Virus record (IMG/VR): IMGVR_UViG_2526164631_000023
Source: a virus
Taxonomy: Duplodnaviria; Heunggongvirae; Uroviricota; Caudoviricetes
Strand: one strand, 5' to 3'
DNA length: 64,000 bases
A program made the position numbers and the translations under genes. Positions 6,557-62,370 of the stretch are shown here, piece by piece; the stretch's first letter is position 1; every line of letters starts with the position of its first letter. Below the pieces are notes generated by a model that saw only the letters and a list, made by a program, of their open reading frames with translations, made no database searches and was not told the origin of the DNA.

Positions 6557-6575
6557 TGTGTTAGAAAACTAAAAT
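6557..6575 (+). promoter_or_regulatory. Operator-like motif copy a (TGTGTTAGAAAACTAAAAT)
   Basis: Member of a dispersed family of asymmetric ~19-bp sites, consensus tGTGTTAGAAA(a/t)(c/t)TAA(a/t)T. Confidence 0.45.
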
Positions 6576-40387: not shown

Positions 40388-40731
40388 GATGTTTCTAAAT
40401 CGGAATGTATGATCTGCATCATCGACTGAAGTCATCCATTGCTGAAATTTTTAGTTGATCTTCCATGTTTTCAGGCTTATATTCATGTCGTCGTAGCAAA
40501 TTCTGCGACCGGGTTTAGCAGCCTGAATACGAATGCGGACAACCGCAGATATCCGATATTGCGGTATTTTTGTGTCCGTAAAACCACGTTACGCCCGAAT
40601 TATGGTGGGGCGTGATGGGGAGGCTTCGGCCTGCTGGTTTCATTCGTGCCAGTCTGCTAACCCCGTCACGTCCTGCCACCCGTTTAGCAGCGGGTGCGCA
40701 GGTTGTTAAACCTACGAATGAGGCCGTAACT

Positions 40732-51339: not shown

Positions 51340-52563
51340 GTGACGGGAACAGCAATGAGTCAACACACTGATACTTCTAATCTGGAAATTATCTCGACAG
51401 CAATTGAAACGCTGCGCACACAAATCGCTCTTATACAGAAACGGAATCCGGGTGATGACCTGTCAAAGCGACTGCACGAGAGTGTCATTGCCACTACAGA
51501 TAACCTGGTGGCGGAAATCAACAAGCTGCTTGATGATGGGGCAGTTGATTACAATAAGCTGGTGGATCAGTTTGAGGAATACCAACAAGCAGTTAATGAT
51601 GGCTTGATCCGTTTTTCACAAGTCACAGGCGTATCAGCGACAGTTGAAAGCCTGGGTGATGCAGTTAATCAATTTGCCGCGAATATGCGTAATGAGATCG
51701 GCAATCTGGAAGCGCGTCTTGAACAGGCAAATACACTGCGTAAATCTGCCGAAGCCGATTTGAACCGTTACAAAAAAGACTATCCGCCAAGCCTGACAAA
51801 GCGGCTGGATGTTGCGGAGAAGGATAACCGCACGCTGAAAAGAGAGCGCCGGGAACTAAAAGAGCGTTTAACCAAGCTCAATCAGCAATGCATTGATTAT
51901 CAAGGCGAAGGCGTCACACTGCGTAAAAAGTTGGCTACAGCGCAGAGCATTATCGAAACATTAAAGCGAGAGTGCTCACAGCTTGGTCACGATCTGAACC
52001 GTGCTTGTGGCATGGGACAAAGACCAGAGACATTTCCACTTATGTATGATGGAAGGGATGCCATTGCCTACATCCATGAGTATCCGCACGGCCTGGTTGC
52101 GGAAACTGGGCAGCGTGGCGAAGCACTGCTGACGGCTAATTACCATCAACAAATCAGAACCAATCGCCTGTTAACGATGGATGTGATCCCATCGGTATGG
52201 GGAACGCCGCTTTACTATCGCCTGCCGGGCTTCGAAAAGGACTGGAATACCGACATAGACGAATGTCTCGCAGATAAAATTATGGCGTACCTGGAGACGG
52301 ATTTTCCGCGCTTATATCGCCGGATTATGGACTCTAAGGATGCGCCAATCGATGAATTAAAAATGCGTCCGGAGACGCTGGAGGCAATCAAGCAGACGGA
52401 GTTTGATACTGTATTCAGTGTGGCCTGCATTCCAAGCTGTTTCCATGAAAGCATCCCGTTCATGCAAGGAGATCGTCGTCAGGAAATCATTGACGCTTGC
52501 CGGGTATGGGCGAACGAATGGGATAAGAAGAATGGGGGTGTAGAAGATCTTTATGGGAAATAA
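51340..52563 (+). CDS. Hypothetical protein, N-terminal coiled coil plus C-terminal globular domain (407 aa)
   Basis: GTG start; alternative ATG at 51355. Confidence 0.3.
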   Translation: MTGTAMSQHTDTSNLEIISTAIETLRTQIALIQKRNPGDDLSKRLHESVIATTDNLVAEINKLLDDGAVDYNKLVDQFEEYQQAVNDGLIRFSQVTGVSATVESLGDAVNQFAANMRNEIGNLEARLEQANTLRKSAEADLNRYKKDYPPSLTKRLDVAEKDNRTLKRERRELKERLTKLNQQCIDYQGEGVTLRKKLATAQSIIETLKRECSQLGHDLNRACGMGQRPETFPLMYDGRDAIAYIHEYPHGLVAETGQRGEALLTANYHQQIRTNRLLTMDVIPSVWGTPLYYRLPGFEKDWNTDIDECLADKIMAYLETDFPRLYRRIMDSKDAPIDELKMRPETLEAIKQTEFDTVFSVACIPSCFHESIPFMQGDRRQEIIDACRVWANEWDKKNGGVEDLYGK

Positions 52564-52564
52564 T

Positions 52565-52582
52565 GTGTTAGAAATCTAAAAT
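52565..52582 (+). promoter_or_regulatory. Operator-like motif copy e (GTGTTAGAAATCTAAAAT)
   Basis: Start of the non-coding region upstream of the tRNA cluster. Confidence 0.4.
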
Positions 52583-52720
52583 CACAATTCGAATGTATTG
52601 ATTGTGAAGATAACTTAACATAGAATTTTCCTTGCTGGTGGGCGGTACCCACGTTTCGCTTGCTGGGCTTGATAGTCACTTATTGGTTATTGTTCGCCCA
52701 CCAGCATTTAACAAATTAAA

Positions 52721-52737
52721 GTGTTAGAAATGTATAG
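52721..52737 (+). promoter_or_regulatory. Operator-like motif copy f (GTGTTAGAAATGTATAG)
   Basis: Second copy in the same non-coding region. Confidence 0.4.
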
Positions 52738-53798
52738 TAATGCAAGAGCACGCTTTGGCACCGTGCAGGCCAAAGTTCAGCAGGTTTAGTGCGGAAAGTG
52801 GTTTCAGAGAGAGCACTTTGCGGAGTAAACGACAATACATGTTGAGCCACGGAAGGTCTTTTTAAGGTGTTCATTGATGATGGTCCGGCAGAGAGTAACG
52901 GTACATGCTGCATCTAATCATCAATGCACATCTTCAACATTAAGGAGGCATAGGGATTTTTGTGGCGGTTACCTTTTGCCCTGAGTCTCCTTAATGTTGC
53001 GGTAATGCACCTATGCGGATGTGGCCTTGCATTGTGTCTTGAAAGAATGGGGTAAGGCCGGGGATATCCCCAGGGGGAGGCACCCCCGCTGCAACGAACA
53101 GCCACAGACGGCAGTCGAGTGATGGAAACGTGTAAAGACTTTAAACCTCGTTACGGCTGGCGTGGCAAACGCGACAACCGAGACAGAGCGGTGACGGGCG
53201 GAGAGAGTGCCGCATCAAGAAAGAAGCCGACTTGTGATCCCTTTCAGCGGGCATTTGAAAGTGAATCCAGCTCAGGCAGTCGGCTTCTTTCTTGTGTGAG
53301 ATGTAGCGTATTTGCCCATCTTCGGGTGGGCTTTTTTAGGGTTTTCGTCATGGTTAGCGACTTTGCGGCGGTTTAGAAACTGACCATTAAAGTAAATGCA
53401 AACGATGATCTGATGATGGTAGCGGCCTAAGAAGCCAGACGCCACGGGGTATGAGTCGTCCCCCGTCAAAAAAATCGACCGCAGAGTGTCCCCGTCTGTG
53501 TATTAGGGAACGGGGAGGCATAACAGGCAAGGGCGCTGGTGTGATTAACCAGATGAATGAGAAGGGTCAGGTCTTTCTGGTCAGCGCCCTTACCTGTTGC
53601 GTCCTTCCCGCGTAACAGCCATTGCTTAATGGCATCCTGGGAGAACTTCTTGTAACGGGTATATCCCGTCATGCTGAAGGCGCTAATCACGCTGGAAGCC
53701 AGGGTTGTGCATCCCCTGTTACCGAATTGCAGCCAGGGCGCGGTGCGCCGAAAAGCATACGGAGGTGGAAGCCCTCGCCGGAGACGTACCCGGCAAGT

Positions 53799-53874
53799 GA
53801 TGGTGTAGCTCAGTAGGATAGAGCAGCAGCCTTCTAAGCTGTCGGTAGGTGGTTCGAATCCACCCACCATCGCC
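53799..53874 (+). tRNA. tRNA-Arg (anticodon TCT)
   Basis: Hand-folded cloverleaf: acceptor gatggtg/caccatc, T-arm ggtggTTCGAATccacc, anticodon loop cTTCTAa, 3' CCA encoded. Confidence 0.65.
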
Positions 53875-53879
53875 AATTT

Positions 53880-53967
53880 AGGGGAGTTAGTCCGTAGGGG
53901 TAGCGGGGTAGACTGTAAATCTACTGTCATTGCGACTCGGGTGGTTCGACTCCATCACTCCCCACCA
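53880..53967 (+). tRNA. tRNA-Tyr (anticodon GTA), long variable arm
   Basis: Acceptor ggggagt/actcccc, anticodon stem-loop gtaga-cTGTAaa-tctac as in E. coli tRNA-Tyr, T-loop TTCGACT, CCA encoded; D-arm irregular. Confidence 0.55.
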
Positions 53968-53971
53968 AATT

Positions 53972-54047
53972 GCCGGTTTAGCTCAGTTGGTAGAGCAGTC
54001 GCTTTGTAAGCGAATGGTCAGCGGTTCGATCCCGTTAACCGGCACCA
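53972..54047 (+). tRNA. tRNA-Thr (anticodon TGT)
   Basis: Acceptor gccggtt/aaccggc, D-arm gctcAGTTGGTAgagc, anticodon loop tTTGTaa, T-loop TTCGATC, CCA. Confidence 0.65.
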
Positions 54048-54501
54048 ACACAACAGGTAAGAGCATTTGTAGAGTTCGACTCTCTACCGTGGGCTTTTTC
54101 CCGCGATGCGAGCCATAAATGCTCTTACCGTTGTGATGAAGTGCAGCTCTTTGAAGCAACCAGAAGATAAGCATCTGGCTTCACAACATAAACCGCAGGA
54201 ACGACCAATAAACGGTAGTCCGTATGGAGAACACCCCGTTGAGGAAGAGGTCTGGCCGGAACCGTAACCGGCACTACAACGTTGAGAACACTGGCGTAAC
54301 GGGGTCATATCCCAATCTACGAATAAATGTTGCGTTGCAGCGTGACAACCAGTGTTCTCAACATTGTGGTGAATGCGCAGGCTGATGCGCGAAAGACATT
54401 GCAGCTATTGCGGAAAAGAGCTGTTCGGCGGGGCAATTAAACGCCCGTGAGAGTCTGAAATAACCGCAAGCCGGAGATCAGCACCGGTCGCCACAATAAC
54501 G

Positions 54502-54588
54502 GGAGAGTAGGGAGCATGGTGCTCAAGCGGTCTTGAAAACCGTCCCATTGCGCAAGCGATGATGGTTCGATTCCATTACTCTCCGCCA
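54502..54588 (+). tRNA. tRNA-Ser (anticodon TGA), long variable arm
   Basis: Acceptor ggagagt/actctcc, anticodon stem-loop gcggt-cTTGAaaa-accgt (as in E. coli serT), T-loop TTCGATT, CCA. Confidence 0.55.
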
Positions 54589-54879
54589 GTGCAACGTTAA
54601 GAGTATTTGGCTAATTAAGCGAATGCCGGAAGCAGAACCGGATCACCAAATGCGTACAGGCGTCATCGCCGCCCAGCCAGCCAAGTGCTCTTACCATTGC
54701 GGTGAATGCGGCTAAGCGCACGCGGAACAGTTAAAACAGTAAAGGTGGTCTTTTTACTGGCGTAACGAGAATCCATAAGTGATCCGGCGTTAATTGTTAA
54801 CTGGTTAACGTCACCGGGAGGCACCCGGCACCGCAACCTAACAGCAATGGCGTTTTGTCTTAAAAGGTGGCTGCAAGTG

Positions 54880-55008
54880 ATGGATTTTTGGGCGTTTGCC
54901 GATAAAAACCCGGAGTGGACATTATTGTTTCTGCTGGTGGTTGCATACGGGGTAGAGCAAGCGGCAAAAGCCTTACGCGGTTCTGGCAAAAAGCGTAAGC
55001 GTAATTAA
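54880..55008 (+). CDS. Candidate small hydrophobic peptide (42 aa) between tRNA-Ser and tRNA-Ile
   Basis: SD aaggtgg 9 nt upstream of ATG; MDFWAFADKNPEWTLLFLLVVAYGVEQAAKALRGSGKKRKRN. Confidence 0.25.
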   Translation: MDFWAFADKNPEWTLLFLLVVAYGVEQAAKALRGSGKKRKRN

Positions 55009-55017
55009 CAGTAATCT

Positions 55018-55093
55018 GGCCCTTTAGCTCAGTGGTTAGAGCGGGCGACTCATAATCGCACGGTCACCGGTTCAAGTCCGGTAGGGGCCACCA
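55018..55093 (+). tRNA. tRNA-Ile2 type (anticodon CAT, ileX-like)
   Basis: ggccctttagctcagtggttagagc..gactCATAAtcgc..ggttcaagtcc..aggggccacca is near-identical in layout to E. coli ileX as remembered. Confidence 0.7.
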
Positions 55094-55545
55094 CATTTGG
55101 TTGTAACACGGCGTATGGCACATGCGTCGTTAGCGGTCTGGTGTAGCTGTTAGGTACCTTTTACTAACACTGCATGGGCACACCAGGTAGCCGGAATGTG
55201 CAAGCCCCGTTCATAGCGTCGGACTGCGGATTCACCATCCTGGCGATTCGGTGTGACAGCCGGAAGAGCACGGCGCACAACAGGAAAAGGCGTTTAATTA
55301 GCGTGAGCGCCGTTTCCGTTGTGGTAATTGCGGCTATGCGCTCGTGACGAAGCCATTTTCATTCACTACGTTCTGATAAGTGACGTCGCCAGGAGTGGCT
55401 AACCTGGCAGGTGGAGGCACCACCGCCACAACTCCTTTCAATTCATCATATAGCCGCTCAGGCTGTACCCCTTAATTAATACGAAGTTACGACATCACTA
55501 CCGGTACTTCCGGGGGATAGTCGCGCGTGTAAAAAAGGAGACGTT

Positions 55546-56121
55546 ATGTTAATGGCGAACGATAACGCATATGCAGAAGAAGATCTCATTTTGAGTGACT
55601 TCATAGGGAAGCGGGAACGCTGGACCAAAAAGCGAGAGGAACTTTACGCCTCATTAGTTCGCAAAGGCGTCAATATCGAAACCGCACAGAGCGGTGATAT
55701 GACAGTGGTAAGCGTGGATTTGCACGGTGTAAGCGTGTCAGCAATCAATCATGAGCCATACGTTGCGTTATCCGAGTCAATGGTAAGGTTAGTTAAGTTC
55801 CTGAAGTACACAGAAGCGAATAATGTAATCATTGGCAAAAAGAATATCCCTTTTTCCTCGGCTTTTTACTGGATGATGAAAGGGCTTGATGCCCGGCGGA
55901 CATCATGGCCTAAAGGGAGCTATATATCGATGTTCCGTGGCAGCATTGGCAGCAAAGAAAAGCTCTTCGAATTCTTGCCGGAAGAGGCATTCGATATTGT
56001 GGAAGGGTGCGATGTGATGGTGATGCCTCGCCTGGTAATGATGAATGGTGATTTACAGGCGCAGACAGACTGGTTTGCAACTGGTGTGGATATTATCGCG
56101 ACTGACTGGGAGGCTTTCTGA
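55546..56121 (+). CDS. Hypothetical protein (191 aa), C-terminal ..ATDWEAF
   Basis: ORF; C-terminus resembles small phage DUF-type domains. Confidence 0.3.
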   Translation: MLMANDNAYAEEDLILSDFIGKRERWTKKREELYASLVRKGVNIETAQSGDMTVVSVDLHGVSVSAINHEPYVALSESMVRLVKFLKYTEANNVIIGKKNIPFSSAFYWMMKGLDARRTSWPKGSYISMFRGSIGSKEKLFEFLPEEAFDIVEGCDVMVMPRLVMMNGDLQAQTDWFATGVDIIATDWEAF

Positions 56122-61341: not shown

Positions 61342-62370
61342 ATGAGTGAATTAATTATCTCTGGCAGTTCCGGTGGTTTTCTGCGCAACATTGGCAAAGA
61401 GTACCAGGAAGCCGCAGAAAACTTTATGCGGTTCATGAATGACCAGGGGGCTTATGCGCCGAATACTCTGCGCGACCTCCGGTTGGTGTTTCATTCCTGG
61501 GCGCGCTGGTGTCACGCTCGCCAGCTTGCCTGGTTTCCGATCTCACCAGAAATGGCCCGCGAGTATTTTCTTCAGCTGCATGATGCCGATCTGGCTTCGA
61601 CCACCATTGATAAGCACTACGCCATGCTGAACATGCTGCTTTCGCATTGTGGCCTTCCGCCACTTTCGGATGATAAAAGTGTTTCTCTGGCTATGCGGCG
61701 CATCCGGCGCGAAGCGGCAACTGAAAAAGGCGAACGAACAGGCCAGGCTATACCGCTTCGGTGGGACGATCTGAAACTGCTCGACGTCCTGTTGTCCAGG
61801 TCAGAACGGCTGGTAGACCTGCGCAACCGGGCTTTTCTCTTTGTTGCATACAATACGCTGATGCGTATGTCGGAAATATCGCGTATTCGTGTAGGTGATC
61901 TGGACCAAACAGGTGACACTGTCACGCTACATATTTCACACACGAAGACAATAACGACCGCCGCCGGGCTTGATAAGGTGCTTTCCCGTCGCACTACTGC
62001 TGTGCTGAATGACTGGCTGGATGTTTCCGGGCTTCGTGAACATCCTGACGCGGTGCTGTTCCCGCCGATACACCGTAGCAATAAGGCCAGGATTACGACA
62101 ACGCCCCTTACTGCACCTGCAATGGAGAAAATATTCAGCGACGCCTGGGTGTTGCTGAATAAAAGGGATGCCGCGCCAAACAAAGGGAGATACCGGACGT
62201 GGACCGGGCATAGTGCTCGTGTCGGGGCCGCTATCGATATGGCTGAAAAGCAGGTGTCTATGGTGGAGATCATGCAGGAAGGAACCTGGAAGAAACCGGA
62301 AACACTTATGCGGTATCTGCGCCGTGGCGGTGTGTCTGTGGGGGCTAATAGCCGCTTGATGGATTCGTAA
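61342..62370 (+). CDS. dre: Tyrosine site-specific recombinase of the Cre family (Dre-like)
   Basis: 342 aa with Cre-like blocks VSLAMRRIRRE, AFLFVAYNTLMRMSEISRIRVGDL, WTGHSARVGAAIDMA, LMRYLR (catalytic R..HxxR..Y); adjacent to rox-type site. Confidence 0.85.
   Translation: MSELIISGSSGGFLRNIGKEYQEAAENFMRFMNDQGAYAPNTLRDLRLVFHSWARWCHARQLAWFPISPEMAREYFLQLHDADLASTTIDKHYAMLNMLLSHCGLPPLSDDKSVSLAMRRIRREAATEKGERTGQAIPLRWDDLKLLDVLLSRSERLVDLRNRAFLFVAYNTLMRMSEISRIRVGDLDQTGDTVTLHISHTKTITTAAGLDKVLSRRTTAVLNDWLDVSGLREHPDAVLFPPIHRSNKARITTTPLTAPAMEKIFSDAWVLLNKRDAAPNKGRYRTWTGHSARVGAAIDMAEKQVSMVEIMQEGTWKKPETLMRYLRRGGVSVGANSRLMDS

Follow-up and report, generated by a model that had tools for sequence, protein, structure and literature searches.

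What does a phage-plasmid keep in 1.2 kb of DNA that holds no ordinary gene? We address this question for positions 52564–53798 of IMG/VR record IMGVR_UViG_2526164631_000023 (Caudoviricetes), analyzed as a stretch of 64,000 nucleotides (nt) that we call the window. An earlier note on this DNA had proposed the region as a candidate non-coding RNA locus, and our analysis supports that proposal: the region has the features of an operator-controlled leader of a transfer RNA (tRNA) operon, its hairpins show compensatory changes, and at 53340–53520 it holds an RNA that is supported by covariation. This RNA, a module of ~180 nt that resembles bacterial transfer-messenger RNA (tmRNA, encoded by ssrA), was not among the inverted repeats of the earlier note and is the element that matters most. 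Together with SmpB, tmRNA forms the principal system by which bacteria rescue stalled ribosomes, and this system is a drug target. Our preferred reading, held with moderate confidence and based on sequence, is that the locus is an operator-controlled tRNA-operon leader with an anti-tmRNA RNA that would dock on host tmRNA and block, or possibly replace, its tag template. The operator-like motifs, promoters, hairpins, terminator, cassette, mini-gene, module elements and tRNA array described below all lie on the plus (+) strand.

The module occurs far beyond the window. A distant-mode search with 53338–53798 matched 251 phage records, among them P1 (Punavirus), Drexlerviridae (T1-like phages, such as CS01 and Bas79), Schitoviridae (Bp4), Ackermannviridae (Serratia phage 2050H1 and Klebsiella phage Menlow), Lederbergvirus HK620 and a T1-like phage recorded on Vibrio. 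A pattern scan of IMG/VR gave at least 120 contigs with the module. Among 5,426 complete Escherichia coli genomes 660 carry it, in 582 places on plasmids and in 140 in chromosomal prophages, where the copies have the antiterminator (Q) gene on one side and the holin gene on the other. Only 5 of 185,579 species-representative genomes match, and the module is therefore an element of Enterobacterales phages and not a host gene. It sits in non-coding islands controlled by operators, promoters or antiterminators, often beside tRNA genes; its place in HK620-type prophages is the late leader that follows the gene of the Q antiterminator. The earlier note had suggested a covariance-model search. Rfam families stay below threshold in the region; a model built for the module finds one copy per locus, at 53331–53533 in the window (135 bits) and with 140 bits in P1.

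The 5′ arm of the module, GGUUUUCGUCAUGGUUAGCGACUUUGCGGCGGUUUAG (53340–53376, 37 nt), is antisense to nt 68–105 of E. coli tmRNA. The arm of the window forms 30 pairs with ssrA, one of them G-U, at −37.1 kcal/mol, in a duplex that covers the 3′ half of the first tmRNA pseudoknot (PK1), A86, G90-C91 of the resume codon and tag codons 2–6. Arms of the T1 and Bp4 types make 28 pairs at the same ssrA site, and all 65 unique arm variants target it from nt 66–69 onward (28–30 pairs, nearly all Watson-Crick, −31 to −39 kcal/mol). This is the extended, conserved complementarity to one defined site that characterizes antisense RNAs; against its own RNA the arm averages −22 kcal/mol. For five of the six arm types, no more than 0.7% of trials give a shuffled arm as good as the real one. 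Against a natural background of 352 natural 363-nt chunks, the T1-type arm stands out with −32.8 (background −20.0 ± 2.6) and the Bp4-type arm with −32.3 (background −18.0 ± 2.4). The arm of the Bp4/Vi01 type (GCGAUUAUGCGG; GCGAC-UUU to GCGAU-UAU) shifts register and pairs nonetheless, in its case with U85-A86-G87, and length variation is confined to an internal loop opposite nt 92–96. The arm core is 93–99% identical across copies; we use this figure instead of a comparison of paired and unpaired arm columns in the model-derived alignment, which was confounded by misaligned insertions.

Two other accounts of the arm were considered. A by-eye alignment presented it as a homologue of tmRNA nt 13–31; however, the 5′ region of E. 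coli tmRNA itself does not pair with the tag site (−13.7 kcal/mol), and the antisense relation therefore explains the arm better. A P2-like closing helix within the module transcript would be conceivable in P1-type elements only, where a strong partner exists that is not significant against shuffles and lacks covariation. That partner, a cis complement of the arm at 53666–53700, occurs in most but not all P1-type copies, and shows no double changes. Its pairing, at −33.8 kcal/mol, is no stronger than that of the best shuffles, and it might mask the arm within a long precursor.

Downstream of the arm lies a tmRNA-like resume context with tag frame and stop (53394–53430): AAAT precedes a frame running from GCA to GCC (53398–53427) and a TAA (53428–53430). 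Written as RNA, AAAU is followed by GCA AAC GAU GAU CUG AUG AUG GUA GCG GCC UAA, that is, ANDDLMMVAA and a stop; the E. coli SsrA tag, for comparison, is ANDENYALAA. All 131 instances consist of GCA, nine codons and TAA, exactly ten codons in each case, with variants that include ANDDVVLMAA, ANDEQFLAVA, ANEEMYLAVA, ANDNAYLMVA and ANDTEFKAAA. Across the 26 unique nucleotide versions the entropy is 0.62, 0.41 and 0.93 for the first, second and third codon position, so that the third varies most, and in the last two codons (Ala-Ala) each of the four bases occurs at the third position. Stops interrupt the other two frames in 25 and 22 of these 26 versions. As in tmRNA, an Ala resume codon opens the frame, with no Shine–Dalgarno (SD) sequence or start codon, and a stop closes it; eight codons upstream, the frame has an invariant UAG. 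Positions −5 and −4 of the phage resume codon are occupied by U and A and so match U85 and A86 of E. coli tmRNA, which have a role in frame setting. The Rfam model tmRNA_permuted aligns to the tag region below its threshold (RF04321, 23.8 bits in the window and 27–33.4 bits in relatives; threshold 47). To judge from these shared features, the module is derived from tmRNA.

The variation within the tag bears on whether the module could be a decoy, titrating tmRNA-binding proteins such as S1, RNase R or SmpB without pairing, its tag frame being only a mimic. Such a decoy would fit the resemblance to the mRNA-like domain and pseudoknot ring of tmRNA and would have a precedent in the RNA of mycobacteriophage DS6A, which consists of the tRNA-like domain (TLD) only and is thought to titrate SmpB (PMC4131195). 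However, the tags differ from that of the host at the nucleotide level, mostly in third positions, which fits a constraint on the peptide and not on the mimic, and the antisense arm of 28–30 bp would have no explanation. We give the decoy a low probability.

After the stop the module folds into two tandem H-type pseudoknots. In pseudoknot a (53444–53479) stem 1 pairs 53444–53449 with 53461–53466 and stem 2 pairs 53455–53458 with 53476–53479; in pseudoknot b (53481–53516) stem 1 pairs 53481–53485 with 53495–53499 and stem 2 pairs about 53490–53495 with 53510–53516. Covariation was evaluated on 24 distinct sequences of the T1/lambdoid type, with the P1-type stems of pseudoknot b placed by homology. 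Pairing holds in 98.2% of the cells of this set, and of its 19 pairs 9 have changed on both sides; none of 500 shuffles reaches the observed values, and slid partners pair in 31–50%. Stem variants of the P1, Bp4 and Vi01 types are compensatory as well. Upstream of the tag, RNAalifold gives only a 3-bp invariant hairpin, and no PK1 was found there.

Despite these likenesses the module is not a tmRNA, because it lacks a tRNA-like domain. Neither for the window nor for 12 related loci does ARAGORN report a tmRNA, and RF00023 (tmRNA) has no match. In gathering mode and at E ≤ 10, Rfam reports only tRNAs and the sub-threshold tag-region match, with C4/c4-a1b1 elsewhere in the window and a sub-threshold STnc100. 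A T-arm or acceptor stem is not consistently nearby: in a flank motif scan, T-arm-like motifs flank 24 of 83 distinct contexts. The phages to which curated surveys assign a tmRNA are limited to mycobacteriophages, Bacillus phage G and a small number of others (PMC4131195), and the 2025 tmRNA database requires CCA positions (PMC11915505).

The missing domain might be encoded elsewhere in the phage or host, so that the module would be the coding piece of a genuine two-piece tmRNA whose acceptor piece supplies T-arm, acceptor stem and CCA. The coding-type conservation of the tag, the tmRNA-like resume context, the pseudoknots placed after the tag as in tmRNA, the sub-threshold matches to permuted tmRNA and the T-arm-like motifs of some flanking hairpins would all agree with this. 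Yet those motifs are present in the minority of contexts given above, and a search of the window for an acceptor piece by complementarity to the conserved 5′ segment found none. In T1-like phages a near-consensus promoter (TTGACA, 17-nt spacer, TAGATT; 10/12) ends ~12 nt before the arm and transcripts are predicted to start ~5 nt before it, too near for a 7-nt acceptor strand to fit in. The antisense arm would again be unexplained, and a two-piece tmRNA is in our view improbable. We found neither a phage RNA antisense to tmRNA nor these tag peptides in the searchable literature, which included the tmRNA database papers, or in Rfam 15, and the module is apparently an undescribed, widespread phage RNA.

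The same conservation weighs on the idea that the leader serves processing or regulation only, its hairpins acting as RNase III or RNase E sites or attenuators and the tmRNA-like stretch being the inert relic of an ssrA fragment that was captured and then moved along as conserved hairpin arms recombined. The mosaic of cassettes, the conserved hairpin arms around variable interiors in many phages and the frequent adjacency of the module to tRNA genes would suit it. A relic should decay, however, and the ten-codon frame is intact in 131 of 131 copies, the pseudoknots change in a compensatory manner, the arm core is near-invariant, in T1-like phages the module has a predicted promoter of its own, and conservation spans Punavirus, Drexlerviridae, Ackermannviridae, Schitoviridae and Lederbergvirus. 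We regard the relic as unlikely, if a little less so than the decoy.

Under the anti-tmRNA reading, the RNA would be made after derepression or by terminator read-through, with a predicted start at GGUUUUCG. Its arm would anneal to host tmRNA and mask PK1 and the resume region or tag template, and this masking would block normal trans-translation during phage development. Antisense oligonucleotides to tmRNA are known to suppress trans-translation in cell-free systems (PMC3384345). The phage resume codon lies a conserved ~21 nt beyond the duplex, and because of this distance and the coding-type substitution pattern the phage frame may be used instead of the host frame. In such a ‘tag swap’, the arm would unfold or mask PK1 and the host resume codon, the phage resume codon would substitute for it, and the alanyl-tRNA-like domain of the host would deliver ribosomes onto the phage tag (ANDDLMMVAA and its relatives). 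The outcome would be a natural two-piece tmRNA made of host RNA and phage RNA, with an altered fate of rescued proteins in infected cells. We consider this extension possible but doubtful.

Several points weigh against the anti-tmRNA reading, which rests on sequence comparison throughout. For the 2050H1 arm type, shuffles do as well in 6.7% of trials (p 0.067), and the GC-richer P1-type arm reaches a z of only about −2.4 against the natural background. The duplex energies ignore the PK1 fold of tmRNA, SmpB and the ribosome, and part of the complementarity could be inherited, if a captured ssrA fragment was once duplicated in inverted orientation. Were the RNA a pure antisense blocker, the coding-type conservation of the tag would have no explanation, and a translated tag would need a route to the ribosome without a tRNA-like domain. 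The level of the P1/D6-type module depends on read-through, because it lies directly behind a terminator, and repressor binding at the D6-type operator-like motifs is suggested by analogy to P1. None of the rival explanations, on the other hand, accounts for both the arm and the frame.

How would such an RNA be controlled in the window? The two operator copies of the earlier note hold up. The first copy of the motif GTGTTAGAAAT, with conserved core TAATGTGTTAGAAA, lies at 52565–52575, where it overlaps the end of the pmgS homologue ~25 nt upstream of a −35 element; the second lies at 52721–52731. With at most one mismatch, GTGTTAGAAAT has 7 sites in the window where 1.3 are expected, a number that none of 100 shuffles reaches, and both copies are invariant in six of six relatives with diverged flanks. 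Five further copies, of the form (ATT)GTGTTAGAAA(T/A)nTAA, are found at 6558, 39172, 40370, 50273 and 62376; one precedes the c4/C4 immunity RNA locus (40477–40683) and another abuts the end of a 342-amino-acid (aa) open reading frame (ORF; 61342–62370). A copy ~100 nt upstream of the c4 antisense-RNA locus is the arrangement of Op51 in P1. Together, the copies likely outline a D6-type C1 regulon.

A sigma-70-like promoter at 52598–52626 (TTGATT, 17-nt spacer, TAGAAT) scores 9/12 in the promoter scan, and both its hexamers are kept in relatives. A possible second promoter, read by eye and not called by the scan, combines TTAACA (52708–52713) with TATAGT (52733–52738) and has the second operator-like copy in its spacer; in a Shigella dysenteriae relative, the −10 that matches TATAGT is TATAAT. 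Since operator copies flank the promoter it is probably repressed in the prophage state, which makes expression of the locus in the lysogen doubtful.

These elements fit the genomic setting. Together with its flanks, the region matches E. coli plasmids such as NZ_CP035876 at 100% identity and phage D6, a phage-plasmid of the P1 family, at 97.8%, and the window is a D6-like phage-plasmid of this family; an Rfam search also finds the P1-type C4 antisense RNA with its a1/b1 targets in it. On its 5′ side the region adjoins a pmgS homologue (51340–52563). No tRNA lies within 52564–53798 according to ARAGORN, and the array of the same transcription unit begins at 53799 and runs to 55093 (Arg-tct, Tyr-gta, Thr-tgt, Ser-tga and a CAT-anticodon tRNA). 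In P1 (annotation of NC_005856) the homologous place holds the C1 operator Op72ab, the ban promoter Pban, a ‘dicF-like region’, ~450 nt without annotation and tRNA-Asn/Thr. From terminator to first tRNA, the 3′ 490 nt of the region, window and P1 are ~90% identical, the tmRNA-like module included, whereas the first ~750 nt are common only to D6-like elements. With operator-type motifs at the promoter (their function taken by analogy), a long non-coding leader and tRNAs downstream, the region is by its layout the 5′ part of an early tRNA operon and the counterpart of the Op72/Pban leader of P1. More than 100 plasmid records annotate it with nothing or with a hypothetical protein.

Pairwise comparisons show that the leader is a mosaic in which cassettes have been gained and lost between relatives (numbered here with the prefix L). 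The ‘dicF-like’ cassette of P1 is present in relatives L003, L004 and L006 and missing from the window and D6, which keep of it only the shared terminator: an intrinsic terminator at 53314–53337 (GCCCATC-TTCG-GGTGGGC, then TTTTTT), identical to the one that ends the ‘dicF-like region’ of P1. Rfam gives no match to DicF or YrlA in the window. A cassette at 53097–53206, without an assigned role, is shared at 83% with a plasmid of Pantoea sp. and absent from the S. dysenteriae relative. On the Pantoea plasmid (NZ_CP034366; L007 2501–2613), the counterpart of this 110-nt cassette is followed by a hairpin of the ‘spacer’ type described below and by a tRNA-like sequence without an ARAGORN call. A block of ~108 nt (52990–53097) is invariant in six relatives that are otherwise 73–84% identical; it covers the C-terminal two thirds of a mini-ORF and two GC-rich hairpins past its stop, and indicates either recent cassette exchange or nucleotide-level constraint.

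The long hairpins of the region were the core of the earlier note, which stood up in part: its repeats and operators are real, its coordinates are a few bases off and its statement on ORFs needs a caveat. All three of its inverted repeats exist. The one given as gctggtgggcg/cgcccaccagc is a 12-nt perfect pair, 52633–52644 with 52695–52706. The 13-bp pair caacattaaggag/ctccttaatgttg sits at 52935–52947 and 52987–52999; in a longer form, with arms reaching to 52955 and 52979, it spans 21 nt at 86%. The ‘16-bp stem’ has 17 nt (53522–53538 with 53582–53598) and one C-A mismatch. Two further long hairpins, at 52861–52937 and 53216–53294, complete the set. Compared with 200 dinucleotide shuffles each, the hairpins have z scores of −3.7 to −5.6, and none of the 200 is as good.

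Hairpin 1 (52633–52706; z −4.1) has the 12-bp perfect stem around a 50-nt interior and stands at the predicted transcript start. Hairpin 2 (52861–52937; z −3.7) has 21-nt arms that are 86% complementary. Hairpin 3 (52935–52999; z −5.6) buries an SD sequence, AAGGAGG (52942–52948), in its 5′ arm and has its 3′ arm inside the mini-ORF, and hairpin 4 (53216–53294; z −5.3) has a 17-bp perfect stem with a nested hairpin. Conservation in relatives, for which the earlier note had asked, is evident: at 73–84% identity three of the hairpins keep their pairing through compensatory changes, namely one pair in hairpin 1 (C-G to G-C) and two changes in hairpin 3, both in L003/L004, and at least three changes in hairpin 4 across L003, L004 and L006.

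The last of the set, a ‘spacer’ hairpin at 53522–53598 (17-nt arms, one mismatch; z −5.1), has arms that covary in Serratia phage 2050H1 and Bas79. It belongs to a family with conserved arms (about AACAGGTAAGAGCAYTG ... CAGTGCTCTTWCCGTT) and hypervariable interiors of 45–65 nt. Further members lie at 54056–54129, 54272–54371 and 54684–54710 in the window, at ~1640–1760 in HK620 (L011) and at 2620–2760 in L007. In P1/D6, HK620, T1-like phages and a Pantoea plasmid they set tRNAs and the tmRNA-like module apart, and they may serve as RNase III sites or as the recombination linkers that produced the mosaic of cassettes. A few interiors contain the T-arm-like GGGTTCGAATCCC. A reading of the long hairpins as Y-RNA-like or permuted tRNAs was dropped, with one T-arm-like loop to its credit but hypervariable interiors that mostly have no such loop. 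The resemblance of the spacer hairpins to integron attC sites (CACAAC...GTTGTG ends) was likewise taken as resemblance only, no integrase being seen nearby.

The caveat on ORFs concerns a candidate mini-gene at 52960–53055. Ordinary genes are indeed absent, as the earlier note had it in denying the region any credible ORF, but this 31-codon ORF is probably coding, as far as its pattern of change tells. It starts with TTG, encodes a hydrophobic peptide of 31 aa (MWRLPFALSLLNVAVMHLCGCGLALCLERMG) and is preceded by the strong AAGGAGG buried in hairpin 3. Relative L003 keeps frame, TTG start and hydrophobicity (33 aa) despite a diverged N-terminal segment that is 6 nt longer, and L005 and L006 show synonymous changes. 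The peptide has no Pfam match, is found by tblastn in D6-like plasmids only and is nowhere annotated. A small hydrophobic peptide with an occluded SD is what type I toxins have, and from its sequence the peptide looks like a type-I-toxin-style or membrane-active one; the promoter scan called no antisense promoter in 52300–55600. An 85-aa ORF at 53119–53376 was rejected as a gene, as it has no family match and overlaps a hairpin and the terminator, and the other listed ORFs of the region have no family matches either.

Could a protein, then, be the main product, with the 31-aa peptide and perhaps other small ORFs as the purpose of the locus and the RNA structures regulating translation only? 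In favour stand the strong SD, which a conserved hairpin buries, and the frame, which survives a diverged segment differing by 6 nt in length. But the ORF takes up 96 of 1,235 nt and is confined to D6-like plasmids, the ORFs beside it match no family, and the widely conserved 53340–53520 has no start codon or SD for its frame and carries the in-frame UAG eight codons upstream of the tag. We consider a protein locus very improbable.

Downstream of the leader, the first tRNA differs between close relatives: it is Arg(tct) in the window (53799–53875) and Asn(gtt) in D6 (L001 5399–5474) and P1 (L002 4494–4569), with the same acceptor stem, and the window has an extra tRNA-Tyr(gta) at 53881–53967 compared with D6 and P1. 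These differences point to swapping of anticodon arms or tRNA cassettes among close relatives. Inter-tRNA spacers at 54698–54835 in the window, in P1 (L002 5226–5345) and in Bp4 (L009 2701–2784) give sub-threshold matches to STnc100, a family of Salmonella small RNAs (RF02076; 40.8 bits, threshold 47). The first sizeable ORF after the array, 55546–56121 (+), has a Thoeris anti-defence Tad2-like domain (PF11195, E 1.1e-9), and its relatives carry the PGAP name ‘MW1434 family type I TA system toxin’ (TA, toxin–antitoxin). With this ORF behind the tRNAs, the operon looks like an early island for counter-defence and translation takeover.

The module thus shares an early island with phage tRNAs and a Tad2-like anti-defence gene. 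If trans-translation is indeed blocked or re-templated, this would add a new layer to phage takeover of host translation, offer a natural design for tmRNA inhibitors and account for conserved ‘junk’ DNA to which annotation pipelines assign nothing or a ‘hypothetical’ label. The proposal is directly testable, given that the module is carried by the classic models P1 and HK620, by many therapy-candidate phages and by the 660 complete E. coli genomes mentioned above. Surveys of tmRNA list no such element in P1, HK620, T1-like, N4-like or Vi01-like phages.

Among known systems, tmRNA (RF00023; permuted forms RF04321 and RF01849-51) is one of the closest. The module shares with it the GCA resume codon, the U(−5)A(−4) upstream, a ten-codon tag that starts with AND and ends in small hydrophobic residues plus Ala, the UAA, H-type pseudoknots after the tag and a tag region that aligns to tmRNA models. 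The stop of tmRNA lies in the helix-5 loop, and a matching hairpin in the module is weakly supported. Unlike tmRNA, the module has no acceptor stem, T-arm, CCA or recognizable PK1 and stays below Rfam thresholds; it has two instead of three pseudoknots after the tag and ~180 instead of ~360 nt, and it carries an arm antisense to host tmRNA that is found in no tmRNA. Stable structured RNAs other than tRNAs are co-transcribed in the tRNA cluster of phage T4 (species 1 and 2 RNAs), and prophage-encoded anti-sRNAs (antagonists of small RNAs) of enterohaemorrhagic E. coli act by pairing with host RNAs. We know of no relation in sequence or structure between these RNAs and the module, none of them targets tmRNA to our knowledge, and we are aware of no natural RNA that pairs with tmRNA.

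The arm of the module presumably overlaps the sequence of the classic anti-ssrA oligonucleotide. Synthetic anti-ssrA oligonucleotides, used in cell-free translation and ribosome display, are likewise antisense to the tag-template region of tmRNA and suppress tmRNA-mediated release in vitro (PMC3384345), but they are laboratory-made DNA, whereas the module is a natural RNA with a surrogate tag frame and pseudoknots. As a phage-borne derivative of a rescue RNA it resembles the TLD-only mini-tmRNA of DS6A and the complete tmRNAs that mycobacteriophages, marine phages and Bacillus phage G carry. From DS6A it is clear that phages can retain part of a tmRNA, and such a remnant may disturb ribosome rescue by the host (PMC4131195; PMC11915505). 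In DS6A the tRNA-like half has stayed and the coding half is gone; the module has the coding and pseudoknot half instead, lacks the tRNA-like one and adds antisense complementarity to the host RNA. Also close is the ban-operon leader of P1, the annotation of which (NC_005856) mentions no tmRNA relationship. The window differs from it in its D6-type operators, a D6-specific upstream leader of ~750 nt, a different first tRNA and the lack of a ‘dicF-like’ cassette, but the two leaders have the same genomic role and share the module.

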